Shown in pieces: positions 84-60,449 of a DNA stretch of 64,000 bases (the stretch's first letter is position 1; each line of letters opens with the position of its first letter). Under the pieces are notes generated by a model, which ran no database searches, had not been told where the DNA came from, and was given only the letters and a program-made list of their open reading frames with translations. The translations under genes were made by a program, and so were the position numbers. The DNA is from Pedosphaera sp. (GTDB lineage: Bacteria; Verrucomicrobiota; Verrucomicrobiia; Limisphaerales; SIBH01), in NCBI GenBank assembly GCA_031414955.1, contig JANOQV010000012.1, forward strand, positions 31,100 to 95,099, written 5' to 3'.

Positions 84-1172
84 ATGGAAGTTTTCAACCG
101 GATACTCAGGGCGGCCGTGGACGCGCACGCCTCTGATTTGCACATAAAAGTGGGCGGCCCGATCGTTCTGCGCATCAGTCGCCAGCTCATCGCTATCGAG
201 GCTCCCATTCCCACCGTCGAGTGGATGGATAATGTGATCACCCATCTCATTCCCCACCACATGAAGGCGCATTTTGATGAAAAGCGTGAGGCGGACTTTT
301 CCTATCTCGTCCACGGCATCGGGCGGTTCCGGACCAACGTCTTCCAGCAACGAGGCGAAATGGCCGTCGCCATGCGCTACGTCAAGGCCCAGGTGCCCGA
401 CTTCGAGCATCTGGGTTTGCCTCCCATCATGCGGCAGTTGGCCGAGTCGCCCCGCGGCATCGTGCTGCTGGCCGGCACCACTGGCTCGGGCAAATCCACC
501 TCGCTCGCCGCGATGATCGAGCACATCAATTGTAACTTCCGCAAACACATCGTCACCCTGGAAGACCCCATCGAGTACGTGTTCGAGGACAATCAATCCA
601 TCATCGAGCAACGCGAAGTCGGCCTCGATACTGAGACCTTTTACTCGGGCCTGCGCGCCGCCCTGCGCCAGGATCCGGACGTGGTGATGATTGGCGAAAT
701 GCGCGACTCCATCACGTTCGCGTCCGCCATGAATTCCGCCGACACAGGTCAAACAGTGCTCTCCACCGTTCACACCACCAACGCTTCGCAATCCATCGTC
801 CGCATCCTTGACTATTTCCGGGCGGATGAACGCGAGCAGGTGCGCCGCCAGTTGTCCGTCACCCTCAAGGCCGTCGTCTGCCAGCGCATGGTTCCCTCGC
901 TCGATGGCAAAATGGTTCCCGCCTGCGAGATCATGCTCAACACGCCCCTCGTGCGGAAACTTATCGAGGAGAATCGCCTCGACAAACTTTCCGTAGCGGT
1001 CGAGACCGGGGTCGATGACGGCATGCAGGATTTTAACAAAGCCGTCTTCGATCTCTACAACGCGGGCAAGATCTCCAAGGAAGAAGCCATGCTCAAGGCC
1101 AGCAACCCCGCCGCGCTGGAGATGAACCTCAAGGGCATCTTCCTCACCCAGGGCAGCCGGATTCTCGGGTAG
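84..1172 (+). CDS. pilT: Type IV pilus retraction ATPase, PilT/PilU family
   Basis: 362-aa ORF. Walker A 'GTTGSGKSTS', Asp-box 'DPDVVMIGEMRD', His-box region 'TGQTVLSTVHT', and an N-terminal 'ASDLHIKVGGP' segment typical of PilT. Confidence 0.9.
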   Translation: MEVFNRILRAAVDAHASDLHIKVGGPIVLRISRQLIAIEAPIPTVEWMDNVITHLIPHHMKAHFDEKREADFSYLVHGIGRFRTNVFQQRGEMAVAMRYVKAQVPDFEHLGLPPIMRQLAESPRGIVLLAGTTGSGKSTSLAAMIEHINCNFRKHIVTLEDPIEYVFEDNQSIIEQREVGLDTETFYSGLRAALRQDPDVVMIGEMRDSITFASAMNSADTGQTVLSTVHTTNASQSIVRILDYFRADEREQVRRQLSVTLKAVVCQRMVPSLDGKMVPACEIMLNTPLVRKLIEENRLDKLSVAVETGVDDGMQDFNKAVFDLYNAGKISKEEAMLKASNPAALEMNLKGIFLTQGSRILG

Positions 1173-1390
1173 GTCCGGAGCGCTTGGCCAAACCCTGGCG
1201 AGTCAGGCCCGATCAAACTGAACGCGCTTCGTTTTCACCATTCCCGCTTTCAGGCTGGCTCTCGTTGGGCGGACTTTGGGGGATGCGGTCGGTGGCGCTC
1301 GCCTTTCGCTACGGGTGCTTCCGTAGCGCCGCCGGAGAGAATGCAGTTGCACGAACCGACCTGACGGCTTTCATTGGCCGCAACCTGACT

Positions 1391-3253
1391 ATGATTCAAA
1401 CAAACACGCCGCTGAAAGTCTTCCTCGCCACCACCGCTCTTTTTCTTGCCACCCAGGGCGCGCGCGCAGCCGCCCTGCCGCCGGGATTTGTGGAGATCAC
1501 TCTGGCCAGCGGTTTCACGAATGCCAGCGCCCTGGTCGTGGCCCCCGATGGCCGCGTTTTCGTAGGACAGCAAAACGGCGTCATCAGGGTGGTGAAGAAT
1601 GGCGTCTTGCTGCCGACACCTTTCGTGCGCGTGCCGGCGGACTCGAACACCGATCGCGGCCTGATTGGTTTGACCATTGATCCTGGGTTCTTGAGCAACG
1701 ACCTGGTGTATGTGAGCTACACCGCCACGAACACGGCGGTCGCCGGAACTTTTCTCCAGCGCATCAGCCGGCTCACAGCCAGCGGCGATGTGGCCCTGCC
1801 CGGCAGCGAAACGATCTTGTTCGAGACCGATGCCTTCGCCGGGTCAGTGGTCCGCGAGGTAGGCGGTGGTTTGCGCTTCGGCCCGGACGGCTTGCTCTAC
1901 GCCGGCATGGGACGGAGCGGCCCGGATTCAAACTCTCAAACCCTGAACAGCCAGTTCGGGAAAATTCTACGCCTGAACAGTGATGGCAGCATTCCGCCCT
2001 CGAATCCGTTCTTTGCCACGGCGGTGGGGAAGAATCGCGCCATCTGGGCGGTGGGCTTGCGTAATCCCTTCGCCCTCTCCTTCCAACCCGGCACGGGCCG
2101 GATGTTCATCAACGATGTGGGCCAATTAACGCGGGAAGAAATCAACGAGGGGGTGATGGGCACGAATTACGGCTGGCCAGTGTGTGAAGGGCCTTGCGTC
2201 AGCGTGACCAACCTGAATCCCGTTTTCAGCTACTCGTCCGCCGCGCCGGCCGTGGAATGTGCCATCACGGGCGGCACATTCTACAATCCGGCCGCAGCGC
2301 TTTTCCCACCGCAGTTCGTAGGAAACTATTTTTACTCCGACTACTGTTCCTCCAAGATTTACGCCCTCCAGCCCGCCACGACGAATTCCACCGTCTTCGC
2401 CAGCAACATCGTCGGCTTTGTGGTGGCATTGGATGTGGGGCCGGAAGGATCGCTCTATTGTCTGGGCCACAGCGCCTCGCCGACGGGGGGCGGTGTCCTG
2501 AGCAAGTTCGTTCCGGGCGTCGAGACGCTGCTGCCCTTCGGCTCGACCTGGAAGTATCTCGACACCGGCATCTCCAACATCCCTGCCAACTGGGTGCAAT
2601 CTGCCTTCGACGACAGCACCTGGTCCAACGGACTAGCGCAGTTGGGCTGGGGCATCAACGGCGAAGTCACCCTCGTGCGCAGCAACCGCACCGACCTCAC
2701 CCGCATCACTACCACTTACTTTCGCAAGTCCTTCGTGCTGACCAATACCGCGCCTTACAGCAATTACGTGGTGAGTTTGGTCCGTGATGACGGCGGCGTG
2801 GTTTATCTGAACGGAACGGAAGTGTTTCGCAGCAACATGTCCACCGGGTTGATGACTTCGACCAATCTGGCCCTCGTCGGCATCGCCAATAACGACGAGC
2901 GGGCGACGCATGGCGCGGTGCTCAATCCCTCGTTGCTTCTACATGGCACCAACCAATTCGCCGTGGAGATTCACCAGCAGTCAATCGTTGGAACCTCCAT
3001 CGACATGAGCTTCGATCTCTCGCTGCTCGGAGTGAATGGCGGGGCCACGCTCCGCGCGCTCAGTTCCGGAGGCGGCATCACCCTGGCCTATCCGCTCTGG
3101 GCCTCGCGCTTCGCCGTCGAGTCCACAACCAACCTGACCACCGCGAGTTGGCTCCCGGTGCCGACGAACGGCGCGACCGCGGTCGGGAATGAACTGCAAC
3201 TGCCTCTGAACACGACCCAGCCTCTGGAAGTTTTCCGCCTGCGCAGCCCGTGA
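1391..3253 (+). CDS. Secreted PQQ-dependent sugar (glucose/sorbosone) dehydrogenase-like beta-propeller fused to a C-terminal jelly-roll module and a short C-terminal tail domain
   Basis: The ORF track starts at 1184, but the Met at 1391 begins a signal peptide (MIQTNTPLKVFLATTALFLATQGARA). 'LPPGFVEITLASGF..LVVAPDGRVFVGQQNGVIRVV', 'GLRNPF' and 'NYGWP' fit the SGDH fold. The C-terminal module carries 'WKYLD..W..FDDSTW..TTYFRKSF..RDDGGVVYLNGTEVFRSNM..AVEIHQ'. Confidence 0.75.
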   Translation: MIQTNTPLKVFLATTALFLATQGARAAALPPGFVEITLASGFTNASALVVAPDGRVFVGQQNGVIRVVKNGVLLPTPFVRVPADSNTDRGLIGLTIDPGFLSNDLVYVSYTATNTAVAGTFLQRISRLTASGDVALPGSETILFETDAFAGSVVREVGGGLRFGPDGLLYAGMGRSGPDSNSQTLNSQFGKILRLNSDGSIPPSNPFFATAVGKNRAIWAVGLRNPFALSFQPGTGRMFINDVGQLTREEINEGVMGTNYGWPVCEGPCVSVTNLNPVFSYSSAAPAVECAITGGTFYNPAAALFPPQFVGNYFYSDYCSSKIYALQPATTNSTVFASNIVGFVVALDVGPEGSLYCLGHSASPTGGGVLSKFVPGVETLLPFGSTWKYLDTGISNIPANWVQSAFDDSTWSNGLAQLGWGINGEVTLVRSNRTDLTRITTTYFRKSFVLTNTAPYSNYVVSLVRDDGGVVYLNGTEVFRSNMSTGLMTSTNLALVGIANNDERATHGAVLNPSLLLHGTNQFAVEIHQQSIVGTSIDMSFDLSLLGVNGGATLRALSSGGGITLAYPLWASRFAVESTTNLTTASWLPVPTNGATAVGNELQLPLNTTQPLEVFRLRSP

Positions 3254-3519
3254 GGACTGGAGTGCGGAGCCAGCCTCGCCCTGCCCGCGACTTTCGGCGG
3301 GTCGCCCCTCTGCGTTCGAAGCGGAGGAATCCTGCTTGTGCAAGGGAGCCTTCTCCATAGGATTCATTCCGTTGTCTGGGGGGCATCCGCGCGGAGGCTG
3401 GGAAACCGCTGGCTCGTCGGGCCGCGGGCCGGTGACCTGATCGTATGGCAGAACACCGGGCCATGGCTGGTTTCCGCGCCGCCCCACCCGACCTCGTTTG
3501 ATTCAACACAGTACTTAAA

Positions 3520-4485
3520 ATGAAAAAATATCTTTGGCCGGTGCTTGTCCCCATGTTCTTCACCCTGCTGTCGCTGGTCTCAGCCCAAGCCGCGACTCTC
3601 TTCCCCGTGCTGGTCGGCGACCGTTGGGGCTTCATCGACAAGTCCGGGACCGTGGTCATCAACCCGCAGTTCGAGCGCGCGGGCAACTTCGCCTCGGGCC
3701 TGGCGGAAGTGCGCCTGGGCAAGTGGGGCTACGTCGCTCCGTCGGGCAAGTTGGTCATCAACCCGCAGTTTGACCAGGCGGCCGGCTTCCAGGGTGGGCT
3801 GGCGGTAGTTGAGTTTGGCGACCGATTTGGCTTCATCAATGCCGAGGGCAAGTACGCCATCAACCCTCAGTTCGATGCCGCCGGCCCGTTCTCGGAAAAT
3901 CGAGCCGCAGTCAAACTCAAGCGCCTGCATGGCTACATCGACAAGACCGGTGGCATCGTGATCAACCCGCAGTTCCAAAGCGCGGAACCGTTCTCCGAGG
4001 GGCTGGCAGCCGTGGAATTAGGCGGTCGTTTTGGCTTCATCGATCCGGAGGGCAACATCGTCATCAATCCGCAGTTTGACAAAGCCAGTTCGTTTGCCTA
4101 CGGACTGGCCGCCTTCAAACTGAATCGGCGCTGGGGCTTCGTCAGCAAGGCCGGCAAGATCGTGATCAACCCGCAGTTCGACGAAGTTGGGCCGTTCGTG
4201 AAGGAAGTGGCGCCCGCGCGCCTGGGCAAGTGGGGTTACGTCGACGCGACGGGCAAGTTCACCATCAACCCGCAGTTTGACGAGGCGGGCGAATTCTCGG
4301 AAGGCCTGGCGCGGGTTCGGTTGGCCGGTCGCTGGGGCTTCATTGATCGCAGTGGCAAGTTCGCCATCAACCCCCAATTCGACGAGGCGATGTCCTTTAC
4401 CGACGGGCTGGCCCGGGTAAAGATCGGCCGCAAGATTGGCTACGTCGATCCCACCGGGAAGTACGTCTGGAATCCGGTGAACTGA
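3520..4485 (+). CDS. WG-repeat (KWG-type) secreted protein
   Basis: Signal peptide MKKYLWPVLVPMFFTLLSLVSAQA. About 9 tandem ~35-aa repeats follow, of the form 'WG(F/Y)ID..GK.VINPQFD.A..F..GLA.V'. Confidence 0.8.
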   Translation: MKKYLWPVLVPMFFTLLSLVSAQAATLFPVLVGDRWGFIDKSGTVVINPQFERAGNFASGLAEVRLGKWGYVAPSGKLVINPQFDQAAGFQGGLAVVEFGDRFGFINAEGKYAINPQFDAAGPFSENRAAVKLKRLHGYIDKTGGIVINPQFQSAEPFSEGLAAVELGGRFGFIDPEGNIVINPQFDKASSFAYGLAAFKLNRRWGFVSKAGKIVINPQFDEVGPFVKEVAPARLGKWGYVDATGKFTINPQFDEAGEFSEGLARVRLAGRWGFIDRSGKFAINPQFDEAMSFTDGLARVKIGRKIGYVDPTGKYVWNPVN

Positions 4486-4504
4486 GCGCCGAGGCCGTCC
4501 CGCC

Positions 4505-5125
4505 TCAGAACCGCACCATCAACCCGGCGGTGAAGCCCGCATAGGTCACGTCCTTTGTGGCCTGGGTCGGTCCTTGGACTTCGATGGACGAGCCATCGTA
4601 GCCAACCTCGATGGCCATGCCGATCTTCTTGCTCCGCCAAAAGTCGACCCCGACGGCGACCACCGGCCCTACTTGCGAAGACTCCACGTTGCGACCGCCG
4701 ACGATGGGGTACCGAAAGCCGACGCGCAGGTAGGGTGAGACATCCTTGTCCCGCAAAAAGGTGTAACGGAGATCGGCTCCGATGGGGACGACATAAGAGA
4801 CATCGTAGCTGTCCGACGATCCGTCGGAATAGATGGTGCGGTTGTTCAGGACAATGACGGTGGCGGGGCCGACATTCAGGCCGACGGCCAGACCGTTGTC
4901 GAATTCATAGTAGGGGTTCAGGGAAAGCCCGATAGGCACCACGACATTCTCTTCAAAACGATAACCCGCCGCCGTGTAGAGATCGTCCAGCGCGGACACG
5001 GCATCATTGATGCCAGAGGCATAGGTAATCCCCACCGGGAAGTAGAAGTGGCCCGCTTGCGCCGCCCCAGGCAGCGCGAGACCGGTGACGAGGGCAAGGA
5101 GGCATTTGAGCTGGCGTGTGTTCAT
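4505..5125 (-). CDS. Small outer-membrane beta-barrel protein (porin-family fold)
   Basis: Signal peptide ...ALPGAAQA. Alternating hydrophobic beta-strand pattern, Gly/Tyr rich, C-terminal '...GLMVRF' with a terminal aromatic residue. Confidence 0.6.
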   Translation of the reverse strand: MNTRQLKCLLALVTGLALPGAAQAGHFYFPVGITYASGINDAVSALDDLYTAAGYRFEENVVVPIGLSLNPYYEFDNGLAVGLNVGPATVIVLNNRTIYSDGSSDSYDVSYVVPIGADLRYTFLRDKDVSPYLRVGFRYPIVGGRNVESSQVGPVVAVGVDFWRSKKIGMAIEVGYDGSSIEVQGPTQATKDVTYAGFTAGLMVRF

Positions 5126-5430
5126 GGTGTTTCCTGTGTTTTGCCCTGGGCAACAGGGCGGTGTGCGTTTGGTCTTTTTTGGGCTTCCTCAAGGCTTTCT
5201 GTGCCCATTGCTGGATGTTGCGTAGAGCACGCGCCTGAGGAGTCGCTCGTTGCTATCCTCCGCTCCGAAGGTTGTCAAACGTCATCTTGTGGATAAATTT
5301 CGGCTCGGCGCAGTTTGCACGGCCGCTGCCGTGGGGCGGGATCAAGATCGGCGCGACGAAGTTGCTCGCCCATTTTTACTCCTTCTCGGTTGCGGCAGTA
5401 GCGCCAAGCCATGATACAACTTCGGTTGTC

Positions 5431-7062
5431 ATGCAAAGCACCAGGGTCCATTCATCTCGGAGACGCGGCCTCGGATGTTTCACCGGCCTGCTGCTGGCCC
5501 TGACGATCCAGGGAGCGGGGACGAAGAAAGAGCCGGGTGAAAAGTTCTTCACCGAGCTGATCCCGCGCACGTTTCACTTCGAGATTCCAGAAGCCACGAT
5601 GGCCCAGCTTCGCCGTTCGCCGCGCACTTATGTTTCAACCACCGTCCGCGAAGGCGACCGTGTGCTGACCAATGTTGCCGTCCGCGTCAAGGGCATGGGC
5701 AGCTTCCGCACCATCGATGAAAAGCCAAGCCTGGTGGTGAAGTTCGATGAGTTCGCCACCAACCAGCACTACCGCGGCCTACGCAAGCTCATGTTCAACA
5801 ACTCAGTCCAGGACTCGACCTACCTGGCCGAGTTGCTGGCCACGCAGATGTTCCGCGACGCCGGCGTGCCGGCGGCGCGCGGCACTCATGCGAGAGTGAC
5901 CTTGAACGGTCGCGACCTCGGCCTCTTCGTGGTCTTCGAGGCCATGAACAAGCAGTTCCTCAAGCAGCATTTCCCGAGCGGCAACGGCAACCTGTATGAG
6001 ACTTACGTCCGCGACATCGACGTGACGATGGAACAGGACGGCGGAAGCGACACCTCGCAGTCGGACGTGGCCGCCCTGCTCGCCGCCTGCCGCATCTCCG
6101 AACTGGCGGCGCGCTGGCGGGAATTGCAGAAGGTGCTCGATGTGGATCGATTCATCTCGTTCGCGGCGATGGAGGTTCTCACCAGCCATTGGGATGGCTA
6201 CGTGATGCACACCAACAACTTCCGGCTCTACCACGATCCAGTGACCGACAAGTTCGCCTTCATCACGCACGGCATCGACTGGGCCTTTCGCCGACCGAAC
6301 ATCTCCATCCATCCACCGCCGAAAAGTCTGGTGGGCCGGGCCGTGCTGGAAACGCCGGAAGGTCAACGGCTCTTCCGCGAACGCCTCGGCACGCTCTTCA
6401 CCAATTACTTTCGTGGGCCGGTGATCACCAACCGCCTCGAACAGGCGCTGGCGAAAATCCGCCGGGCCAACTTAAACGCCAGCGACCTGGAGAAGATCGA
6501 ACGTCGCGCCATCTGGTTGCGGCAACAGATTGAAGCCCGCGCCGCCAAGGTCAGCGAGCAACTGCGCGGAATCCCGTTGGCGCCGATGAAGTTCGGGCCG
6601 GACGGCACCGTGAGCCTGAGCGAAACCAATCGCTGGCGCGACGAGCCGGATCGCGGTGACGCGCGGATGGACCGCGGGAAGGTGGACGGGCACAACGCAC
6701 TGCACATCGCGGCGCGCAACGAGCGCACGCGCGCCTCGTGGCGGGCGCAGGTTTATCTGGCGCGGGGCTGGTATCGCTTTGAAGGTTTGGCGCGCACGGA
6801 AACTTTGAGCGGCGGCTCGGTGCGCCTGCGCATCTCAGGCGACACCCGCAGCGTCGGCATCGCGGATACGCGTGGCAGTTGGCGTCCGCTGACCCATGAC
6901 TTCGAAGTGGTGGACACCGGCATGGACATCGAGTTCGTCTGCGAACTGACCGCGATGCAAGGCGAGGTGTGGTTCGACATCGATTCGCTCAAGGTTCGGA
7001 AGTTGAACGCTGACGAAGCGCGCCCGGCCAACAATCTCCGCCGGACTATTTTGGAACAGTGA
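5431..7062 (+). CDS. CotH-family (spore-coat-kinase-like) secreted protein with a C-terminal carbohydrate-binding-like domain
   Basis: The Met at 5431 precedes a hydrophobic signal segment (CFTGLLLALTIQGAG). 'PSLVVKFDEF...YRGLRKLMFNNSVQDSTYLAELLATQMFRDAGVPAARGTHARVTLNGRDLGLFVVFEAMNKQFLKQHF' and 'SHWDGY..NNFRLYHDP' match the CotH signature. Confidence 0.8.
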   Translation: MQSTRVHSSRRRGLGCFTGLLLALTIQGAGTKKEPGEKFFTELIPRTFHFEIPEATMAQLRRSPRTYVSTTVREGDRVLTNVAVRVKGMGSFRTIDEKPSLVVKFDEFATNQHYRGLRKLMFNNSVQDSTYLAELLATQMFRDAGVPAARGTHARVTLNGRDLGLFVVFEAMNKQFLKQHFPSGNGNLYETYVRDIDVTMEQDGGSDTSQSDVAALLAACRISELAARWRELQKVLDVDRFISFAAMEVLTSHWDGYVMHTNNFRLYHDPVTDKFAFITHGIDWAFRRPNISIHPPPKSLVGRAVLETPEGQRLFRERLGTLFTNYFRGPVITNRLEQALAKIRRANLNASDLEKIERRAIWLRQQIEARAAKVSEQLRGIPLAPMKFGPDGTVSLSETNRWRDEPDRGDARMDRGKVDGHNALHIAARNERTRASWRAQVYLARGWYRFEGLARTETLSGGSVRLRISGDTRSVGIADTRGSWRPLTHDFEVVDTGMDIEFVCELTAMQGEVWFDIDSLKVRKLNADEARPANNLRRTILEQ

Positions 7063-7083: not shown

Positions 7084-10000
7084 CTACGCCAGCACGTCCG
7101 CCAGGAATCGACCAGTGTGCGAGCCTTTGGTCCGCGCCACCTGCTCCGGCGTGCCCTGCGCCACCAGCGTGCCGCCGGCTTCGCCCGCCTCGGGACCGAG
7201 ATCGATCACCCAGTCGGCCTCGGCGATGAGGTCGAGGTTATGCTCGATGACGATGACGGAGTGTCCGGCCTCGACGAGCCGCTGAATCATTTCCACCAAT
7301 CGCCGCACATCGGCCATGTGCAATCCGATGGTGGGTTCCTCGAGGATGAACAGGTTGCGCTTCTGCTTGGGGTCGAACAGCGTGGGTTGCCTGAGTCCGG
7401 TGAGCAGATGCGTGACGAGCTTGACCCGCTGCGCCTCACCACCGCTCAAGGTCGGGCTGGTCTGGCCGAGTTGGAGGTAGCCCAACCCCGTGTCGCGCAA
7501 CGCCTCGATGGGCCGTTTGATTTTCGGGAAGCTCGCGAAGAACTCGATGGCTTCCTCGACCGCCAGATCCAGCACCTGCGCGATGTTCCGGCCCTTGTAT
7601 TCGATGTCGAGGGTCTCGCGATTGAACCGGCTCCCGCCGCACGTCTCGCAACGCACGTAAGCCGGCGGCAGGAAGTTCATCTCCAGCTTGATCTGGCCCG
7701 CGCCCTCGCATTCGGGGCAACGACCCTGCGCGCTGTTGAAGGAAAATCTTCCCGGCCCGTAGCCGCGCATCCGGGCCTCGGGCGTCTGGGCGAAGAGCGC
7801 GCGGATGTCGTCGAAGAAACCGACATAGGTCGCCGGCGTGGAGCGTGGCGTGCGTCCGATGGGCGATTGATCGACTTCATAGACTGCGGCGATTTGCTCG
7901 TGACCAGAAACAATCTCGCCCGAAGGCGGCCCGACCTTGGACGCTCGCTCGCGCTTTATCGGAGTTGGACCTTGGCCCTTGGACCGCTTCAGCTTCCCCA
8001 GGAGCGTGGGCAACAAACACTCCCGGATAAGCGTGCTCTTGCCCGAGCCGCTCACGCCGGTCACCACCACGAAGCGATTCAGGGGAAACTCGACGGTGAG
8101 GTTTTTGAGATTGTGAACGGACGCGCCGCGCAGCACCAACGTGCCCCCGGCGTCCCGCCGGGTCGGGGCGCTCTCCGTCCGGGCAGTCCTCCTGGGCTTG
8201 AGCACGGAACCCGGCGGGACGCCGGGGGCACGTTGCACTGACCGCCTCTCCCCGCGCGCCGGATACTGCTTATGTTCCCGCAGGCAGCGCCCCGTGATGG
8301 AGTCCTCTTGCCGCAACAACTCGGCCAGCGTTCCAGCCGCGACAACCACGCCGCCTTGCACGCCGGCACCGGGGCCAAGGTCCACGATGAAATCCGCGCG
8401 ACGCATGGTCGCTTCATCATGTTCGACGACCACGAGCGAATTGCCGCGCGCCCGCAACTGCTCCAGGGTGGCGATAAGCTGCTCATTGTCGCGCGCGTGC
8501 AGGCCGATGGTCGGCTCGTCGAGCACGTAGAGCACGCCGCAGAGGTTGGAACCAAGCTGGGCCGCAAGCCGGATGCGCTGGGCTTCCCCGCTGGAGAGCG
8601 TGGTCACGCTGCGACCCAGTTGCAGATAACCCAGACCCACTTCGAACAGAAACTTCAGCCGCTCGGAAATTTCCGGAATCATGTCGCGAGCGATGAGCGC
8701 CTCGCGTCCGCTGAACTGGAGCGTGCGGAAAAACTGCGCGGCCTGCGCCACCGACAGTTGAGCGACCGAATCGATAGTGGGCGGCTTTGGACCTTGGACG
8801 CTCGCTCGCGATTTATCGGAGTTGGACCTTGGACCCACACAATCAAGCCGCACCGCGCGCGCGATCTCGTTCAGCCGCCCGCCGTGGCACGTCGGGCACT
8901 CCTCGCGCTTGCCTTCCTGCCATCCAAACCATGACTCCTCGATGGCATCGGCCCGCGCGCCCCGCTCCACGTCTGGGAGGTAGAACAACTCGCCAAAGCC
9001 GCGGCATTGGGGACACCAGCCCTGCGACGAGTTGTAGCTGAACATCTTCGGGTCGAGCGGCTGAAAGGAGCGCCCGCACTGACCGCAGGCGCGCTCGGTC
9101 GAATGCACGCTCACATGCTGCTGGTCGTCCACCGCGAGCAAAGTGCCGTGGCCGAGGTCGAGCGTGGTGTCGATAAGTTGTTGCGGGGTGCGCTGGCCGG
9201 GCGCGGTGTTCTCACCGCGCCGGGCGGCGGACGACGTTCGCGGCGCGCTGAGGACAGCGCGCCCTACCTTGCGAGGTTTTGCTTCCAGCACCCCGGTCAC
9301 GATCTCCACATCGTGCTCCTTGAAACGGTCGAGACGCAAAGGCTTGTCGGTGCGGACCAGTTTTCCGTCGGCGCGAACTTCGGCGTAGCCGTGCTTCGCG
9401 GCCCACTCGGCGACGTCGGTATGGAAGCCCTTGCGGTTCTTGACCACGGGCGCGAGCAGCAGCAAATCACCGCGTTGCTTCATCTCCTTTTGCAACTGCG
9501 CCCGCAACTGGTCCCGGGTCTGCGGCTCCACCGGAATCTGGCAGGCCGGACAATACTGAGTGCCGAGCCGGGCCATGAGCAGGCGAATGAAATGATAAAC
9601 CTCGGTGACGGTGGCGACCGTGCTCTTGCCGCCGCCGCGCGTGGTGCGCTGCTCGATGCTGACCGCGGGCGGGAGGCCGGTGATGAGATCCACATCCGGC
9701 CGCGCCATCTGTTCCACAAACTGCCGCGCGTAGGCGTTCATGGAATCGAGAAAGCGCCGCTGCCCTTCGGCGAACAGCAAGTCGAAGGCGAGCGTGCTTT
9801 TGCCCGAGCCGCTTACGCCGGTGATGACGACAAACTTCCCGCGCGGGATGTCGAGCGAGATGTTCTTCAAGTTATGCTGGCGCGCGCCCAGGATGCGGAT
9901 GACATCCGGGCTGGCAACGAGAGTCAGAGGCGTGGGCGCGACGTTCACGGCGGGAGGAGTAACATGAGTCGGTCGAAACGCCAAAATTGAAACCCCGCCT

Positions 10001-10164
10001 CCATGAATGCAGGCCGGCCCAGGCACCCACGCCGCCGGCCCATTTTGGCTCGGGAGAACTATTTGATGTTTGGCGGGCGGTGTTTGGTGTTTATTCCGAG
10101 CGATGTATTCGGCCAACTTCAAAGACGCCGCACTGGTCTTGATTGGGCACGGCTCAACGCTCAA
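7084..10164 (-). CDS. uvrA: Excinuclease ABC subunit A (UvrA), carrying four in-frame repeat-element insertions
   Basis: Two ABC modules ('ITGVSGSGKSTLAFD' and 'VTGVSGSGKSTLIRE'; 'LSGGEAQR' twice; 'YVLDEPT', 'FILEEPT'). Zn-finger cysteines are present (CPAC, CGQCG..CPQCRG, CPTCHG, CPEC..CETC). The start is uncertain: conserved UvrA sequence begins near 'VIRILGARQHNLKN', and an in-frame GTG at 9948 is a more plausible start than the ATG at 10164. That ATG would overlap the divergent gene at 10103. Confidence 0.9.
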   Translation of the reverse strand: MSVEPCPIKTSAASLKLAEYIARNKHQTPPAKHQIVLPSQNGPAAWVPGPACIHGGGVSILAFRPTHVTPPAVNVAPTPLTLVASPDVIRILGARQHNLKNISLDIPRGKFVVITGVSGSGKSTLAFDLLFAEGQRRFLDSMNAYARQFVEQMARPDVDLITGLPPAVSIEQRTTRGGGKSTVATVTEVYHFIRLLMARLGTQYCPACQIPVEPQTRDQLRAQLQKEMKQRGDLLLLAPVVKNRKGFHTDVAEWAAKHGYAEVRADGKLVRTDKPLRLDRFKEHDVEIVTGVLEAKPRKVGRAVLSAPRTSSAARRGENTAPGQRTPQQLIDTTLDLGHGTLLAVDDQQHVSVHSTERACGQCGRSFQPLDPKMFSYNSSQGWCPQCRGFGELFYLPDVERGARADAIEESWFGWQEGKREECPTCHGGRLNEIARAVRLDCVGPRSNSDKSRASVQGPKPPTIDSVAQLSVAQAAQFFRTLQFSGREALIARDMIPEISERLKFLFEVGLGYLQLGRSVTTLSSGEAQRIRLAAQLGSNLCGVLYVLDEPTIGLHARDNEQLIATLEQLRARGNSLVVVEHDEATMRRADFIVDLGPGAGVQGGVVVAAGTLAELLRQEDSITGRCLREHKQYPARGERRSVQRAPGVPPGSVLKPRRTARTESAPTRRDAGGTLVLRGASVHNLKNLTVEFPLNRFVVVTGVSGSGKSTLIRECLLPTLLGKLKRSKGQGPTPIKRERASKVGPPSGEIVSGHEQIAAVYEVDQSPIGRTPRSTPATYVGFFDDIRALFAQTPEARMRGYGPGRFSFNSAQGRCPECEGAGQIKLEMNFLPPAYVRCETCGGSRFNRETLDIEYKGRNIAQVLDLAVEEAIEFFASFPKIKRPIEALRDTGLGYLQLGQTSPTLSGGEAQRVKLVTHLLTGLRQPTLFDPKQKRNLFILEEPTIGLHMADVRRLVEMIQRLVEAGHSVIVIEHNLDLIAEADWVIDLGPEAGEAGGTLVAQGTPEQVARTKGSHTGRFLADVLA
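7933..7985. repeat. 'TTGGACC-type' dispersed element, copy 1, in frame inside uvrA
   Basis: GACCTTGGAC-GCTCGCTCGCGCTTTATCGGAG-TTGGACCTTGGCCCTTGGACC. Translated on the minus strand as ...KGQGPTPIKRERASKVG... Confidence 0.85.
8141..8231. repeat. 91-nt palindromic element in frame inside the uvrA inter-ABC linker
   Basis: GTGCCCCCGGCGTCCCGCCGGGT (8141-8163) and its perfect reverse complement ACCCGGCGGGACGCCGGGGGCAC (8209-8231) flank a 45-nt spacer. Confidence 0.9.
8783..8835. repeat. 'TTGGACC-type' dispersed element, copy 2, in frame inside uvrA
   Basis: GGCTTTGGACCTTGGAC-GCTCGCTCGCGATTTATCGGAG-TTGGACCTTGGACC. Translated as ...GPRSNSDKSRASVQGPKP..., which is shifted by one nucleotide relative to copy 1. 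Confidence 0.85.
9199..9268. repeat. GC-rich repeat (related to the element at 59844-59945) in frame inside uvrA
   Basis: GGCGCGCTGAGGACAGCGCGCCCTACC (9242-9268) matches GGCGCGCTGGGGACAGGCGCGCCCTACC at 59918-59945. It is preceded by the hairpin GGCGCGGTG-TTCT-CACCGCGCC. Encodes ...KVGRAVLSAPRTSSAARRGENTAPG... Confidence 0.75.
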
Positions 10165-10969
10165 CGCCGATTCGGCCGCGCCGACCCATCAACACGCGGA
10201 CGAGCTGCGGCGGCGGGGCGTGTTCGGTCAAGTTCGCGTGGCTTTCTGGAAGCAGGAGCCGGCCATCCGCACGGTTTTGGACGGCCTGCAGACGCGACGG
10301 GTTTTCATCGTGCCGTTGTTCATCAGCGAGGGCTACTTCACTCAGGAGGTGATTCCCCGCGAGCTGGAGTTGTTGGTCCAAGGTCCAAAGTCCGAGGTCC
10401 AAAGCCTGGAGAGGGTGCAGCGGCGTGGCGCGCAGACGATCTATTACTGCGGCCCCGTCGGCACGCACGACAGCATGACGGAGGTGTTGCTGGCCCGCGC
10501 GTGCGAGGTCGTGGAACGGTTTCCCGCCGGCCCTGCACCCGCTCCGTCTGACACCACGCTTTTCATCGCCGGTCATGGCACGGGCAACAACGAGAACTCG
10601 CGCCGGGCCATTGAGCGACAGGCGGAACTAATCCGTGCGCGGAAGATTTACGCCGAGGTCCACGCCGTCTTCATGGAGGAGGAACCGCGCATTGAGACGT
10701 GTTACGCGATGGCCCGCTCCCGGAATATCGTCATGGTGCCGCTCTTCGTCAGCGATGGGCTGCACTCCCAGGAGGACATCCCGGTGCTGCTCGGCGCGTC
10801 GCCTGCAGTCGTCAAAGAGCGGATGCGGCTGGGTCAGCCGACCTGGCACAACCCGACCGAGATGCAGGGCAAACTCGTCTGGTACGCGCGCAGCATCGGC
10901 AGCGAACCGCACCTGGCCGACGTCATTCTGGAGCGTGTGCAGGAGCAGGTGGTCGCGGCGGTCGATTAG
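10103..10969 (+). CDS. CbiX-like (sirohydrochlorin chelatase-type) protein, double domain
   Basis: Two halves each begin 'L(V/F)I(I)GHGS/T' and are followed by 'VPLF(I/V)S(E/D)G.H', the CbiX/SirB fold signature. The Met at 10103 is preferred over 10070. Confidence 0.65.
   Translation: MYSANFKDAALVLIGHGSTLNADSAAPTHQHADELRRRGVFGQVRVAFWKQEPAIRTVLDGLQTRRVFIVPLFISEGYFTQEVIPRELELLVQGPKSEVQSLERVQRRGAQTIYYCGPVGTHDSMTEVLLARACEVVERFPAGPAPAPSDTTLFIAGHGTGNNENSRRAIERQAELIRARKIYAEVHAVFMEEEPRIETCYAMARSRNIVMVPLFVSDGLHSQEDIPVLLGASPAVVKERMRLGQPTWHNPTEMQGKLVWYARSIGSEPHLADVILERVQEQVVAAVD
10373..10406. repeat. Short form of the 'TTGGACC-type' element in frame inside the CbiX-like gene
   Basis: TTGGTCCAAGGTCCAAAGTCCGAGGTCCAAAGCC is the reverse complement of the uvrA copies, lacking their 22-nt core. 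Encodes ...LVQGPKSEVQSL... Confidence 0.75.
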
Positions 10970-13812: not shown

Positions 13813-13964
13813 CCCGCCTGCGGGGAGGGCCCGCCGGAAGGCCGGACCTGCACCCAGCCAACGATGGACTTGGTGGCACCGATCCGCCGAAGGCGAGGCC
13901 GTTCGCTCGTCTGGATTCTCAGAGCCGGTCTGAAAATTCACTGGGGCAGCGCAAGCTGCCCGCC

Positions 13965-14075
13965 CCGGAGTGCGCTCGTGCTCGGGCGCCGCCACTTGCA
14001 AACACAAGCGGGTGTGGGTTTTTCCGACGCGCTCCAAGTCATCACCTTGCTGCGCCCGAGGACGGGCGCACTCCG
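13965..14075. repeat. ~111-nt inverted-repeat element (family 'GCGCCCGAGGACGGGCGCACTCC')
   Basis: CCGGAGTGCGCTCGTGCTCGGGCGCC (13965-13990) and CTGCGCCCGAGGACGGGCGCACTCCG (14050-14075) are inverted, and each arm is itself a hairpin. It sits in a convergent intergenic region. Confidence 0.8.
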
Positions 14076-28372: not shown

Positions 28373-28408
28373 AAGATTTTTTCAAAAAGGCCCGGCCGGT
28401 TGCGTGTT
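28373..28408 (+). promoter_or_regulatory. Candidate ECF-type promoter, distal copy upstream of RCC1 paralogue 1: AAGATTTTTTCAAA-N16-CGTGTT
   Basis: TTCAAA at 28381-28386, an exactly 16-nt spacer, CGTGTT at 28403-28408. One of five co-oriented copies of the same bipartite motif. Confidence 0.4.
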
Positions 28409-28440
28409 CATGCCAGTGCAGGCAGCCGCGCAAATTGTTT

Positions 28441-28700
28441 TCAGCCGCTCTGGTCCACCGCCGAGACGGGAAGAGCGCAGAGGTTTTCCGGCCGGGATCT
28501 CTGTACTGCAATCCATCCGAATCCTCGTGCGCCGCGAGGATTTCTGCCCGCCTGATCCACCGCCGAGGCGGGAAGGGCGCAGAGACAGCGCGTTCGGAAA
28601 GCTCTGCCCCCTTCCCGCCTCTGCGGTGGATCAGCCCGTTCCCTTTGGTTGCGGCTCCGCCGCGCTGTGTCCTTCCCGTCTCTGTGGTGCCACCGGGTGG
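28441..28700. repeat. Cluster of four ~35-nt GC-rich repeats (family 'CTCTGCGCCCTTCCCGCCTCGGCGGTGGATCAG'), two forming a long hairpin
   Basis: GATCCACCGCCGAGGCGGGAAGGGCGCAGAG (about 28552-28582) and CTCTGCCCCCTTCCCGCCTCTGCGGTGGATC (about 28600-28630) are inverted. Further copies lie near 28450 and 28665, and at 34845-34935 upstream of paralogue 2. Confidence 0.75.
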
Positions 28701-28891: not shown

Positions 28892-31800
28892 ATGAAATTT
28901 TGCTTCACAGTTTGCGGTGATCCAAGGCGGCGGTGGCGTGGCCCTGCGGCCCTGCGGCGGTGGCGGCTTCTTCTGCTGCTGGGGTCCGCGCTCCTCCTCC
29001 TGTGCGCCTGGCTCGGAATGGGCACCGCTTATGCCGCTACTCCCGGCGCGGTGCTGGGGTGGGGAATCTCCTCCCAAAGTTACATGCCCCTCGCGACGCA
29101 GAGTGGGGTGGTGGCCGTTGCGGCGGGACAGTATCGCGCGGTGGCCTTGAAGACCGACGGGAGCTTGCTGGCGTGGACACCCTTCGCCTACGAGGTAACG
29201 ACCGTGCCCGTGGAGGCGCAGAGCGGGGTGATGGCCATTGCAGCGGGAGGGGATAACATCGTGGCCTTGAAGACCAACGGGAGCGTGCTGGAGTGGCTGG
29301 TGTGGGGAGACAACTGGTCCGTCCAAACGGTGCCCGTGGAGGCGCAGAGCGGGGTGACGGCCATTGCAGCGGGAAGCTTTCACGCCGCGGCCTTGAAGAC
29401 CAACGGGAGCGTGGTGGCGTGGGGATCCACCGTCCACGGCCAAACGACGGTACCGGTCACGGCGCAGAGCGGAGTGATAGCGATTGCAGCGGGAGGTTCT
29501 CACACCGTGGCCTTGAAGTATGACGGGAGCGTGGTGGCGTGGGGTTATAACGCCTACGGCCAAACCAATGTGCCCGTGGCCGCGCAAAGCGGGGTGGCGG
29601 CCATTGCGGCGGGAAAATATCACACCGTAGCCTTGAAGTATGACGGGAGCGTGGTGGCGTGGGGAGACAACGGCTTCGGCCAAACGACGGTGCCCGCGGC
29701 GGCGCAGAGTGGAGTGATGGCCATTGCAGCCGGATACGGACACACCGTGGCCTTGAAGACCAACGGGAGCGTGCTGGCGTGGGGAGACAACTGGGCCGGC
29801 CAAACGACGGTGCCCGTGGCGGCGCAGAGTGGAGTGACGGCGATCGCGGCGGGAGAGGGACATACCGTGGCGCTCGTCATCCCGACTCCCCCCACCATCA
29901 CCACTCAACCCGTGAGCCTGACGGTGAACGCGGGGCAGAGCGCGAGCTTCACCGTGGTGGCCACGGGTTTTCCCTTGAACTACCAATGGTTCAAGGACGG
30001 AACCAATCTCAACGGGGTAACGAGCCACGGCCACGGCTTGGACCACGCATCGTTCAATGACGCGGGAAGCTACACCGTGGTGGTGACCAACTCTGTCGGG
30101 AGCGTGACGAGCGCGCCACCGGCGGTGCTGACGGTGAACGCGGCGCTTCCCGGCGCGGTGGTGGAGTGGGGAGTCAACTTCTCGGGCCAAGTGAATGTGC
30201 CTGTGGCGGCGCAGAGCGGGGTGACCGCCATTGCGGCGGGAGAGTATCACACGGTGGCCTTGAAGACCGACGGGAGCGTGCTGGCGTGGGGACAAAACGA
30301 CGTTGGCCAAACGACCATTCCCGTTGAGGCCCAGAGCGGGGTGATGGCCATCGCCGCGGGAGAGATACATACCGTGGCGCTGAAGAATGACGGAAGCGTG
30401 GTGGCGTGGGGAGACAACGCGGAAGACCAAACGACCGTGCCCCTGGCGGCCCAGAGTGGAGTGACGGCCATTGCGGCGGGAGCATATCACACCGTGGCCT
30501 TAAAGAACGACGGAAGCGTGGTGGCCTGGGGATACGCCGGCATCGTAACGACGGTGCCCGTGATGGCGCAGAGCGGGGTGACGGCCATCGCGGCGGGAGG
30601 CTATCACACCGTCGCCTTGAAGAATGACGGAAGCGTGGTGGCGTGGGGAGACAACTGGGCTGGCCAAACGATCGTGCCCGTTGCAGCGCAGAGCGGGGTG
30701 ATGGCCGTTGCGGCAGGAAACTCCCACACCGTGGCCTTGAAGACTGACGGGAGCGTGCTGGCGTGGGGAGACGGCTCTTACGGCCAAATGAATGTGCCTG
30801 TGCCGGCACAAAGCGGAGTGACGGCCATTGCGGCGGGATATGGCCACACCGTGGCCTTGAAGAACGACGGGAGCGTGATGGTCTGGGGCCGCAACGACTA
30901 CGGCCAAGCAACGGTGCCCGTGGCGGCGCAGAGCAGAGTGACGGCCATTGCGGCGAGAGGTGGTCACACCGTGGCGCTGCTCGGAGATGGGAGGCCGGTG
31001 GTGACCGTGCCACCGGTGGAACAAACCGCGCTCCTCGGTAACACCTTCCGCCTGGCGGCCATGGTCGTGGGCAACGGGCCGTTGTTTTATCAGTGGCGCT
31101 TCAACGGAGTGGACATCGCCGGAGCGACCAATGCCCTGCTCGAACTTCTCAACGTGCAAACCAATCAGGCGGGTGGTTACACGTTCGTCGTGACCAATGC
31201 CCTCGGCGCGGTAACGGGCGCGGTGGCGCAAGTGACAGTTCTCGTTCCGGCGCACGTTGATCCCTTGCCGCCGAGCACCACGGTGTTGCTTGGCTCCAAC
31301 GTGACGCTGTCTGCGAATGCGGAGGGCACGCCGCCGCTGCGGTATCAGTGGCGCAAGAACGGGGCGAACATTCCGGGAGCCACGAACAGCAACTACACCA
31401 TCACCAACGTCCAGGTCAGCGATGGCGGCGCGTACACGGTGGTGGTGCAGAACGATTACGGCACAGCCACCAGCGACCCGACGCTGCTCATCGTCCAAGT
31501 GCCGCCCCAGGCTCCGGGCGATAATTTCGCCAACCGAGTCGCGATCATCGGCACCAACGGGGTGGTCGGGGGCACGAACCGTTTCGCGACCAAGGAAGCG
31601 GGCGAACCCAACCACGGCGGCAAGGCGGGCAGCAATTCAGTCTGGTACACCTGGCAGGCGCCGAGCAACGGCATCGCCACCTTCCGCACCCAGGGCAGCG
31701 TGTTCGACACCCTGCTCGGCGTTTACACCGGCGGCACCGTTTCCAATCTCACGACGGTCGCCAGCGACGAAGATCTCGGCGGCTTCTTCACCAGCGAAGT

Positions 31801-34772: not shown

Positions 34773-34808
34773 AAGATTTTTTCAAAAAGGCCCGGCCCGT
34801 TGCGTGTT
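34773..34808 (+). promoter_or_regulatory. Candidate ECF-type promoter, distal copy upstream of RCC1 paralogue 2
   Basis: TTCAAA at 34781-34786, 16-nt spacer, CGTGTT at 34803-34808. The surrounding ~125 nt are almost identical to 28372-28495. Confidence 0.4.
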
Positions 34809-34943
34809 CATGCCAGTGCAGGCAGCCGCGCAAATTGTTTTCAGCCGCTCTGGTCCACCGCAGAGACGGGAAGAGCGCAGAGGTTTTCCGGCCGGCGATC
34901 TCGGTGTCCTTCTCGTCTCTGCGGTGCCAGAACGCGCCCGGCG

Positions 34944-35083: not shown

Positions 35084-38000
35084 ATGATTTTTTATATCAC
35101 AGTTTGTGGTGATCCGAGGCGGCGGTGGCTGTTAACCCTGCTGCTTTTGTGCGCTGCGCTCCCTGGCCCGGCGACGCACGGCGCGGGTTCCTTGCTGTCG
35201 TGGGGTTTGAACAACGCCGGCCAGACCAATGTGCCGGCGGGCCTGACCAATGTTGTGGCCGTGGCGGCGGGCCAGAACCACAGCCTGGCCTTGAGGGACG
35301 ACGGCACCGTGGTGGCGTGGGGCAGCAATGCCACCGGCCAGACCAACCTTCCTCCGGGGCTGGATGGAGTGAGCGCCATGGCCTCCGGACTCTTCCACAA
35401 CCTCGCCGTGCGCGCCGATGGCACTGTCGTGGCGTGGGGCCAGAACATCTATGGCCAGACCAATGTCCCGGCCGGGCTGCAAAATGTCGTCGCGGTGGCG
35501 GCTGGCACCCGACATAGCCTGGCCTTGCGGGCGGATGGCACCGTCGCCGGCTGGGGCACGAATGAGGACGGCCAGATCACCATCCCGCCCAACCTCACCA
35601 ACGCCCTGGCCATCGCCGCCGGGGCTTATCACAGCCTGGCGCTCCGCCGCGACGGCACCGTCGTGGCCTGGGGCCGGACGAACTACTTGCAGACGGCGGT
35701 CCCGGCCTCGGCCACGAACATCCTCGCCCTCGCCGCCGGCGGAGATCACTCCCTCGCCCTGCGCGCGGACGGCCAGGTGATCGCCTGGGGTTACAGCGTC
35801 TCCGGCCTGACCAACGTGCCGGTCGATCTCACCAATGCCGTGGGCGTTGCGGCGGGATACTATTTCAACAGCGCCCTGCGCGCGGATGGCCGAGTGGTGG
35901 CCTGGGGTGCCAACAACTCCGGCCAGACCAACGTGCCGCCGGGCATGACGAACGTGGTAGCGCTGGCCGCGGGTTACGGTCACGCCTTGGCTCTGCGCGA
36001 TTCAGATTTTGTCGTGTCCTCTGCGCCAAGGATTCTAACCCAGCCGCACGCACGGACCATCTACAGCGGCACTACCGTCACGCTGGACGTGCTCGCCATC
36101 GCTCCCGATCCAATCGCCTATCAGTGGCAATTCGGGGAGACGAATCTGGCCGGGGCGACGAATGCGTCGCTCGTTTTGGAGAACGTGCAGTTCGCGCAGG
36201 CGGGACTGTATCGTGTGGTGGTCAGCAGCAGCGGTGGAGTTGCTGTGAGCATCGACTCCTTGCTTTCGGTGGTTGGCGCCGGCCCGATCATCGTCAGCGG
36301 ACCATCGAATGTGGTGACGCTTGCTGGTTCGACTGCGGAGTTCCACGTCACTGCGGACGGATCAGAACCCTTCAGCTACCAATGGCAGTTCAATGGTGCG
36401 GACATCAGTGGGGCCACCAGCAGCAGTTTGTTTCTCTCGAATATCCAACTGGCTGACCAGGGCGGGTACCGCTGCGTCGTCAGCAACGCCTTCGGCGTCA
36501 TCACCAGTTCGGCGGCGATCTTGATCGCACCGGCGCTCGTCATCGCGTCGCAGCCTCAAAGCCAGACTGTCTTGGCGCTGGCCAGCGTCACCTTCAGCAT
36601 CGTCGCCGTTGGCTCTGGCCCCTTCACCTACCAGTGGCGGAGATCCGGCATCAGCCTGACGGAGGGCGGCTGGATTCTGGGGGCGCAGACGGCCACGCTG
36701 ACCTTGTCCAATGTTCTGCCCGCCGACGCGGGCAGTTACTCGGTGACGGTGCATAATGCCTTTGGCACCGCGTCCAGTTCCAACGCTTGGTTGGCGGTGG
36801 TGCCACTGGTGGCTTGGGGCACCAATTCATTCGGGCAAACCAGCATTCCACTGAGTCTCACCAACGTGACGGCGGTGGCTGCGGGCGCCTATCATAATCT
36901 GGGGCTGAAGGCAGACGGGACAGTAGTCGCTTGGGGGCAGAACTCTTCCGGTCAGATCAATGTTCCACCGAGCTTATCCAATGTGGAGGCCGTCGCGGCA
37001 GGAGTCGCTTGGAGCCTGGCTCTGCGCGGCAATGGAACGGTGATGGCGTGGGGATCTGGTATTCAGACCAATGCTCCGTCCGCGCTGTCGAACGTGATCG
37101 CGATCGCGGCTGGCGGCTTTCATGGTCTGGCCTTGAAACAGAACGGCACCGTGGTGGCCTGGGGCCAGAACACCGAGGGCCAGACCAATGTGCCTCCCGG
37201 CCTGTCGAACGTGATTGCGATTGCGGCCGGACAATCCCATAGCCTGGCCTTGAAGGCGGACGGTCGGGTCGTCGCCTGGGGCTGGAACACCTGGGGCCAG
37301 ACGAACGTGCCGCCGGGGCTTTCAAACGTGGTCGCGATTGCAGCGGGCATGTTCTACAGCCTGGCCTTGAAAGACAACGGGACCGTGGCGGCCTGGGGTT
37401 CCAACTCCCTTCCCAGCGGATTAAGCAACGTCGTGGCCATCGCGGCAGGTGCGGCAGGTGCGCCCGATCACGGTCTCGCACTCACGGACGACGACACGTT
37501 GCTACGGTGGGGAAACACTTGCTGTGGCCTGACGAACATTCCGTCTGGCCTGACCGGCATCGCCGCTGTCGCGGCGGGTGCCAACCATGACCTGGCTCTC
37601 GTGTTTGGCTCATTGGCCGTGAACCCGATAACTCCTGGTGCCGTGGTGGCCTGGGGAAACAACAACTACGGCCAAACGACGGTGCCCGTGGCAGCGCAGA
37701 GCGGAGTGGTGGCCATTGCGGCGGGAGGTTCTGAATACGGTGGTCACACCGTGGCCTTGAAGACCGACGGCAGCGTGGTGGCGTGGGGAGAAAACGACTA
37801 CGGCCAGACGACGGTGCCCGTGGCGGCGCAGAGCGGAGTGACGGCCATTGCGGCGGGAGCTGGTCACACTGTGGCCTTGAAGAACGACGGGAGCGTGCTG
37901 GCGTGGGGACGCAACTTCGAAGGCCAAACGAACGTGCCCGTGGCGGCACAGAGCGGAGTGACGGCCATTGCGGCGGGACGTGTTTATACCGTGGCCCTAA

Positions 38001-41716: not shown

Positions 41717-41831
41717 TCTTGCGTTCCCTTCCCGCCGCGGAAGCCGTGTTCATGCTGTTGGAATTTCAACGCCAAGACGCTGGGGAAAACTGACTGATGG
41801 GGGATGGGTTCCAGCAGCGACGGCAAAAATC

Positions 41832-59792: not shown

Positions 59793-59843
59793 TCGAAGGG
59801 CGTGCGACTTGACCCTGTTCTTGGTACCGCCCAACCGGTGCAT

Positions 59844-60418: not shown

Positions 60419-60449
<31 letters not shown>

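Follow-up and report, generated by a model that had tools for sequence, protein, structure and literature searches.

What is the DNA that interrupts the same repair gene twice, in frame, and yields a different peptide each time? The question is raised by uvrA in a stretch of 64,000 nt from a Pedosphaera sp. assembly (Verrucomicrobiota; GenBank GCA_031414955.1, contig JANOQV010000012.1, positions 31,100 to 95,099), hereafter the window, in which an earlier note had described a ~53-nt element present in two copies. Our analyses confirm that observation and support part of its interpretation, but the mechanistic picture was partly wrong: on the reading that we consider probable, the inserted DNA is a module of 22 nt (net gain 21 nt), placed in two heptamer arrays that already existed in loops of UvrA, and it is a non-autonomous, orientation-specific module of the small dispersed repeat (SDR) kind.

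The two copies lie 857 bp apart in uvrA. Positions 7933-7977 and 8790-8834 agree at 43 of 45 bases, the central 43 nt differing solely at one A/C position of the core, and no comparable match arose in 100 dinucleotide-preserving shuffles. The repeat pair reported in uvrA is therefore real, but the ~53-nt ranges given for it are 7 nt out of register and the shared tract is ~45 nt long. The core reads GCTCGCTCGCG[A/C]TTTATCGGAG (hereafter the 22-mer). Copy A (8787-8834) is bordered on each side by an exact 13-nt TTGGACCTTGGAC, and copy B has GACCTTGGAC as its left and TTGGACCTTGGCCCTTGGAC as its right border. Read along the coding strand, copy A runs GGT CCA AGG TCC AAC TCC GAT AAA TCG CGA GCG AGC GTC CAA GGT CCA AAG and is translated (aa 444-460) as CVGPRSNSDKSRASVQGPKPP / GPRSNSDKSRASVQGPK, its core part, AA[C TCC GAT AAA TCG CGA GCG AGC], giving N-SDKSRAS; copy B runs TCC AAG GGC CAA GGT CCA ACT CCG ATA AAG CGC GAG CGA GCG TCC AAG GTC and is translated (aa 728-744) as KRSKGQGPTPIKRERASKVGPP / SKGQGPTPIKRERASKV, its core part, A[CT CCG ATA AAG CGC GAG CGA GCG], giving T-PIKRERA. 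The same DNA is thus read in frames one base apart, as had been claimed, with NSDKSRAS the product in copy A and TPIKRERA in copy B, and the third coding-strand frame, which contains a TAA, is used at neither site. The placement relative to conserved motifs was also correct, copy A lying C-terminal of CPTCHGGRL and N-terminal of TIDSVAQLSVAQAAQFF, and copy B between the second Walker A motif and DQSPIGRTPRS (aa 765-775).

The host gene is an intact uvrA encoding UvrA (excinuclease ABC subunit A), in which Walker A motifs, signature motifs and zinc modules are all kept. Its minus-strand open reading frame (ORF) is open over 7084-10164, a span to be trimmed at its upstream end, with the true start probably near aa 61-85. 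Over its whole length this ORF matches solved UvrA structures (E = 1.5e-241 to 9gxk and 1.3e-239 to 2r6f), and it contains GVSGSGKST twice (the second, aa 703-711, being the second Walker A), LSSGEAQR and LSGGEAQR. Orthologues found by BLASTP are at most 82% identical to it, and the neighbouring CotH and CbiX genes are syntenic in two orthologous loci (L022 and L024).

What was inserted becomes visible in relatives without the core. The protein was aligned with 54 UvrA orthologues from Limisphaerales-like Verrucomicrobiota, and the DNA was compared with four orthologous uvrA genes (L022-L025). Closer orthologues carry heptamer-derived peptides at both sites (SKFKVQGSKFP, PRSKAQGPKSP, PKSKVQSPKS, KAQGPKSKV, SKVQGPK and similar), and the extra 7 aa of each site are found in the query alone (0/54 orthologues). 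At site 2, which holds copy A, relatives read AGTCCAA GGTCCAA AGCCCAA GGTCCAA AG against GGTCCAA GGTCCAA CTCCGATAAATCGCGAGCGAGC GTCCAA GGTCCAA AG in the query; at site 4, which holds copy B, they read ...CAA GGTCCAA (A/G)GTCCAA AGTC against ...CAA GGTCCAA CTCCGATAAAGCGCGAGCGAGC GTCCAA GGTC. The 22-mer therefore stands at the identical array phase in both (GGTCCAA, then CTCCGATAAAKCGCGAGCGAGC, then GTCCAA), and each time it replaces one array base, which accounts for the net gain of 21 nt. Judged from these sequences, the heptamer arrays (TTGGACC; GGTCCAA on the coding strand) are older than the 22-mer in uvrA, and the new DNA is the 22-mer alone. Because core-less orthologues have arrays at the same two sites, the 'direct repeats' that had been assigned to the element, which are GTCCAA-type arrays, form no part of it, and because the reading frame through one array is shifted by one base from that through the other, an identical insert gives two peptides. 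The claim of a lineage-specific insertion at the level of DNA survives this comparison, the 22-mer being absent from all 54 orthologues. The core-less array in the neighbouring cbiX-like gene (Table 1) also occurs in the L024 orthologue (FEVQSPKSKVQSF), and is consequently ancestral and an example of an unoccupied array. A perfect array of GAGGGTT (4.4 units) lies at 60419-60449.

Table 1 Coordinates of uvrA, its repeat-derived inserts and the associated heptamer arrays in the window
Feature	Position	Strand	Remarks
uvrA coding sequence	7084..9912	minus	Both Walker A, both ABC signature motifs, zinc modules; match to solved UvrA
Copy B, heptamer-derived flank GACCTTGGAC	7933..7942	minus	Ancestral
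Copy B, 22-nt core	7943..7964	minus	GCTCGCTCGCGCTTTATCGGAG, one A-to-C difference; without counterpart in 54 orthologues
Copy B, heptamer array (TTGGACC TTGGCCC TTGGACC)	7965..7985	minus	Ancestral
Fourth in-frame insert	8137..8235	minus	aa ~643-675; 99-nt palindrome, 27-nt arms perfectly complementary
Copy A, array arm (TTGGACC TTGGAC)	8787..8799	minus	Ancestral; relatives have (A/G)GTCCAA x4 here
Copy A, 22-nt core	8800..8821	minus	GCTCGCTCGCGATTTATCGGAG on the plus strand; without counterpart in 54 aligned orthologues
Copy A, other array arm (TTGGACC TTGGACC)	8822..8835	minus	Ancestral
Third in-frame insert, site 1	9196..9267	minus	aa 300-323, VGRAVLSAPRTSSAARRGENTAPG; GTAG-tagged REP-like palindrome GTAGGGCGCGCTGTCCTCAGCGCGCC...
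GGTCCAA array, 4 units, core-less	10375..10402	plus	Inside cbiX-like gene (VQGPKSEVQS)

These comparisons bear directly on the original proposal, namely that a ~53-nt selfish palindromic element, akin to the Rickettsia palindromic elements (RPEs) and possessing its own TTGGACCTTGGAC direct repeats, was inserted twice independently. The copies do share ~45 nt, flanks included, and in-frame selfish repeats are known from repair genes; yet orthologues without the core have these heptamers at both sites, the cbiX array is core-less, the flanks around the 22-mer in other genomes are wholly different, and the core folds at the level of shuffled sequence, so that we regard this proposal as improbable. 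On its own the 22-mer forms a 6-bp bulged hairpin, with DNA folding energies of -1.8 to -2.3 kcal/mol that are no better than those of shuffles (z = +0.15 to +0.41). It has no terminal inverted repeats, and neither a GTAG nor a CGTC tag, CGTC arising at the core-heptamer junction in uvrA only. The weak fold, the missing tag and the missing terminal inverted repeats together mean that the 22-mer is neither RPE-like, nor a repetitive extragenic palindrome (REP), nor a miniature inverted-repeat transposable element (MITE); for the last of these, non-array contexts also lack target-site duplications, and the 'direct repeats' of the arrays pre-existed. The suggested likeness to RPEs fails additionally on size, the 22-mer being 5-7 times smaller. 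A known RNA family was likewise rejected, Rfam at its gathering threshold returning tRNAs only from 12 core-bearing loci.

Both 22-mer sites are, on alignment and structural modelling, variable and disordered surface loops of UvrA. Three of the four insert segments in uvrA (Table 1) are gaps against solved UvrA, the region around the other one being unaligned, and all four are coil with a predicted local distance difference test (pLDDT) score below 50 in an AlphaFold model based on 46 sequences (model residues 215-237, 361-373, 565-588 and 646-660, model numbering being ORF aa minus 84). The pLDDT is in line with the alignments without being independent of them, because low confidence is partly to be expected for lineage-specific inserts. 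Hypervariability among the 54 orthologues points the same way, and the variable-linker positions proposed earlier are borne out. The counterpart of reference UvrA residues 308-449 is reduced, comprising 67 residues (aa ~396-463) against 141, and this shortened stretch nonetheless includes an 18-aa repeat-derived segment. Since orthologues are similar in overall length, the clade as a whole seems, from its sequences, to be without much of this region.

It might also be supposed that the inserts never reach the protein, being cut out of the mRNA or skipped by ribosomes that take off at one flanking direct repeat and land at the other. Translational bypass of a short insert is known from gene 60 of phage T4, and direct repeats do stand on both sides of the core. 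However, each insert lengthens the gene by exactly 21 nt, contains no stop in the frame used and lies in a loop, a corresponding insert in an aminotransferase (see below) has no direct repeats and is in frame in 120/120 homologues, and no observation requires such a process, which we consider extremely improbable.

Public collections were scanned with GCTCGCTCGCGNTTTATCGGAG for exact matches only, yielding 8 loci in ~185,000 species genomes (six bearing Verrucomicrobiota-type names, one Bifidobacteriaceae and one Akkermansia muciniphila) and 13 loci in metagenomes. Viral contigs gave 0 exact matches, and BLAST matches in plasmid and phage collections were at chance level only; a phage or plasmid origin was rejected on these grounds. 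In other Verrucomicrobiota the 22-mer occurs in ~12 unrelated contexts with differing flanks, where the base 3' of it is T in every case, usually as TTG, and its orientation is constant relative to TTGNNNN heptamers. Arrays of other units contain it (TTGAATG in L002, TTGGAGC in L004, TTGGATG in L011), and in these three, as in both window copies, it is placed at a heptamer boundary directly 5' of TTG and in one orientation. The heptamer unit has the form TTGNNNN and varies by species. Two of these loci (L002, 2969-3100; L011, with the core at 3575-3596, minus strand) are intergenic inverted heptamer arrays arranged around a second palindromic core of ~18-22 nt, CCGAGCGCGGGTTTAGCC in L002 and GCCGAGCTGCGTTTGGTTCGGC in L011, with the 22-mer inserted in one arm.

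Other contexts are a class IV aminotransferase gene (L007, L008, L010, L014, L016-18), the C-terminal tail of truA (L009) and intergenic DNA (L019, L020). In the aminotransferase the insert is a clean 7-aa insertion against the solved structure 7z79 (RN-SDKSRAS-G), and the segment is present in 120/120 of the closest homologues, with substitutions in 35/120 that amount to ordinary coding drift. No target duplication accompanies the 22-mer outside arrays (aminotransferase, insertion sequence (IS) hairpin, L019, L020); a target-site duplication was accordingly rejected, the apparent direct repeats in uvrA being ancestral arrays. In L020 the core (2359-2380) lies ~170 nt upstream of a Cas9-like gene with an N-terminal RuvC motif (DVGHSSIGWAV), and terminator-like sequence comes next.

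An IS110-family element (L003, L005, L012, L013, L015, L021) also carries the 22-mer, in its 3' non-coding part. This element has the domains PF01548 (DEDD transposase) and PF02371 (Transposase_20), no target duplication and a long non-coding end, with subterminal repeats CAGTTAAGCCC and GGGCTTAATAGG and a 3' non-coding region of ~640 nt (L015, oriented 8799-9436); its transposase has thousands of close relatives. An alignment of the 3' non-coding DNA from ten copies shows a conserved hairpin, which folds strongly (z about -3). The apical loop of this hairpin is empty in L026, L030 and L032/33 (...GGCG^TTGGATC...), occupied by the core in L015, L021 and L027-29 (L029 with a T-to-C variant), and in L031 occupied by CTCCGCTCGCGACCCGAGTCGGAG, a related variant of 24 nt. 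Every such insert lies immediately 5' of TTG. There are thus three contexts in which the 22-mer has filled and empty sites, namely sites 2 and 4 of uvrA and the 3' hairpin loop of the IS110-family element. The same 3' region (L015, L021, L026-L033) contains further hairpin inserts of 27-33 nt that vary in presence and absence, one of which also adjoins the 22-mer in L019. It additionally includes a hypervariable stretch of ~34 nt between conserved GGAAGACCG and GGCCCGAT, the position at which IS1111-type elements encode their guide RNA.

The IS110-family element is a host and possible vehicle of the 22-mer. It is not a demonstrated mobiliser, because no copy is present in the 64-kb window and it inserts at a different sequence, its own target (~GGCAGCATCGTCATG) being unrelated to the 22-mer sites; as a candidate mobiliser it was rejected on both counts, and in view of the core-less IS copies.

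An identity of 22/22 in many diverged contexts, together with residence in the apical loop of a hairpin with a strong fold, could be taken to mean that the 22-mer is a selected functional motif that binds a protein or RNA, structures the mRNA or encodes a useful peptide. The identity is, however, an ascertainment effect, because the scans demanded exact matches; the 120 aminotransferase orthologues, which drift like ordinary coding sequence, expose this artefact, and an extraordinary conservation implying function was rejected. Moreover, use of two frames in uvrA means that there is no common peptide, IS110-family copies work with or without the 22-mer, and 0/54 UvrA orthologues have it. We consequently give a selected motif little credence.

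Returning to the insertion of a 22-nt module as the reading we favour, its steps may be sketched as follows. The 22-mer would land where heptamer arrays or hairpin loops expose a ^TTG site. An enzyme acting in trans would probably mobilise it, and a single-strand mechanism of the HUH/Y1 type would fit duplication-free insertion 3' of a short CAA on one strand. Its persistence in uvrA would reflect survivorship, only in-frame, stop-free insertions in tolerant loops being retained, and the second uvrA copy may stem from conversion between the arrays, not from a second transposition.

Several points weigh against this reading. No mobilising enzyme was identified, and, as noted, the window is without an IS110 copy and the IS110 target is unrelated to the core sites. 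No diverged copy (up to 5 mismatches) was detected in 238 kb of window and loci, including ~50 kb of orthologous loci. The 64-kb window, which constitutes our view of copy number in the source genome, has two copies, both in uvrA, fewer than would normally be expected of a selfish repeat family, and representative genomes that have any exact match have one each; these two copies and the 8 + 13 exact loci do not show the element to be abundant. The identity across species is biased by ascertainment, the unbiased aminotransferase sample diverging normally. Finally, identical junctions in one gene could reflect a single insertion followed by gene conversion from array to array.

This last point is the basis of an explanation that deserves separate consideration, in which the 22-mer was inserted once and then copied within uvrA, by ectopic gene conversion or template switching, from one GGTCCAA array to the other, with 10-14 nt of homology on each side. 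It would account for the identical junctions, which lack the same array base at each site, for the presence of both copies in one gene and none elsewhere in 64 kb, and for the third array, in cbiX, being unoccupied. Conversely, such homology arms are very short, one core base differs between the copies, and the same phase-specific placement is found in the L002 and L011 arrays, so that targeting alone can explain the junctions. We view gene conversion as a serious possibility, albeit not the likelier course of events; it covers the second copy only, and for the first is compatible with insertion of the module.

Among known systems, the 22-mer most resembles, by analogy, the 'very small dispersed repeats' of Nostoc. 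SDR5 enters the HIP1 motif precisely between its nt 3 and 4 (PMC4390886), and SDRs have been reported in Nostocaceae only (PMC5861425). The 22-mer and its 24-nt variant in L031 fall in the same size class (21-27 nt), there are filled and empty sites in otherwise conserved sequence, the position in a short iterated motif is precise and orientation-specific (IS loop site GGCG^TTGGATC), and the 22-mer likewise occurs inside another mobile element, here of the IS110 family. According to what Elhai and colleagues are said to have described in 2008, SDR1-8 of Nostoc punctiforme also lie within tandem heptameric repeats and other mobile elements. The host phylum differs. SDRs are also multi-copy within one genome, whereas the 22-mer has two copies in 64 kb, both in uvrA, and this low apparent copy number is its main departure from them.

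The earlier note had considered such insertions undocumented for this lineage. However, both uvrA genes of the verrucomicrobium Opitutus terrae hold dual in-frame REP inserts (Di Nocera et al. 2013, BMC Genomics 14:522, PMC3733652), and the general phenomenon is for that reason known. In the same study GTAG/CGTC REPs inside genes are thought to be tolerated through their linker positions, and pseudouridine synthase genes are recurrent hosts (PMC3733652). The parallels with our locus are close: short in-frame repeats occupy two sites of one uvrA, a verrucomicrobial repair gene, the truA tail (L009) carries the 22-mer much as pseudouridine synthase genes host REPs, and the site 1 insert of uvrA is itself a GTAG REP of that kind. 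The 22-mer, in contrast, is untagged, has no real palindrome, keeps a fixed heptamer-array phase and is apparently low-copy, REPs existing in hundreds of copies. Consequently, in-frame double repeat insertion in a verrucomicrobial uvrA is already published; an untagged 22-nt module at a fixed array phase was not found described.

RPEs, as summarised in PMC10969869, are palindromic, ~100-150 bp long, present in dozens of copies and translated as a peptide conserved in one frame. They share with the 22-mer the property of being in-frame, translated repeat DNA in unrelated genes (for the 22-mer, uvrA twice, aminotransferase IV and the truA tail), at sites compatible with protein folding (in uvrA, loops with a pLDDT below 50). 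The 22-mer differs in its much smaller size, weak structure, use of two frames and low copy number. The short tandemly repeated repetitive (STRR) sequences of cyanobacteria are short tandem arrays of 7-nt units that are lineage-specific and scattered through the genome. The heptamer arrays considered here are likewise lineage-specific 7-nt tandem arrays, but the TTGNNNN arrays lie in coding loops at conserved positions (uvrA, cbiX) and their unit is species-dependent.

'Very small mobile repeats' are extended beyond Nostocaceae by a 22-nt module that keeps one array phase in uvrA and whose sites, in three contexts, are found either filled or empty. The conserved ^TTG junction, the absence of duplication and the presence inside an IS110-family hairpin are concrete constraints on any mechanism by which such repeats move. 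A more speculative extension, which we think unlikely but worth stating, is that the 22-mer, the 24-nt variant and the 27-33-nt hairpin inserts belong to a verrucomicrobial class of ultra-small mobile DNA that is actively inserted at ^TTG and leaves no duplication, for which the species-specific TTGNNNN arrays would be landing pads or by-products and the trans-acting enzyme would be of HUH/Y1 type or an RNA-guided one of IS110 type. If true, this class would represent a second independent system for moving repeats too small for recognisable transposon ends.

Two other in-frame repeat inserts in uvrA, which the earlier note overlooked, accompany the 22-mer copies (site 1 and the fourth insert; Table 1). 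The site 1 insert is 90-93% identical to a REP pair at 59840-59945 and corresponds to a 24-aa gap against solved UvrA, at a position that is hypervariable in orthologues, which have variants of the REP-like insert, other repeats or nothing there. The fourth insert sits in the linker joining the two ATPase halves. At these two sites orthologues hold at least five differing repeat-derived peptides, among them GRAVLSAP...EDSAPYQ, APGVPPG...RRDAGGT, AADVRRLTSK...QSLLTSAAT, LECGDLSPLS...GDKSPHSK and GKVGKRVSEK...LTHSPTH, and for the linker site by itself at least five different repeat families are represented. Some 90 UvrA residues in four loops thus derive from repeats and not from protein evolution, which matters for annotation and comparative work. 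The four loops tolerate arbitrary insertions, making them useful for engineering, and they are relevant to the published speculation that repeats prefer repair genes as targets.

A 45-nt internal repeat is also able to break short-k assemblies. Two Logan contigs reached through a neighbouring OMP gene (L034 and L035, from Sequence Read Archive runs SRR20217188 and SRR20217185) are 100% identical to window positions 470-5861, and both end at 5861, short of uvrA, with the break ~2 kb from the repeat. Because of this complete identity, the source strain is present in both samples.

Elsewhere in the window, further palindromic dispersed repeats occur at 13964-14075, 28552-28634, 34856-34926, 41831-41945 and 59844-59945. 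One dispersed repeat, CCCGGAGTGCGCCCGTCCTCGGGCGCAGCAATG, has 33-nt arms at 41831-41945 with a complementarity of 97%, and related arms recur at 13964-14075. Coding repeat arrays with units of 117-120 nt (…DGSVVAWG.N.YGQTTVP…, RCC1/β-propeller-like) extend over ~29000-31050 and ~35200-39650 in at least two large genes, and near-identical duplicated segments are found at 28373-28495 and 34773-34895 (98%) and at 32238 and 40848 (88%). An AT-rich motif of 45 nt occurs five times upstream (28371, 28744, 34771, 34942 and 42068).

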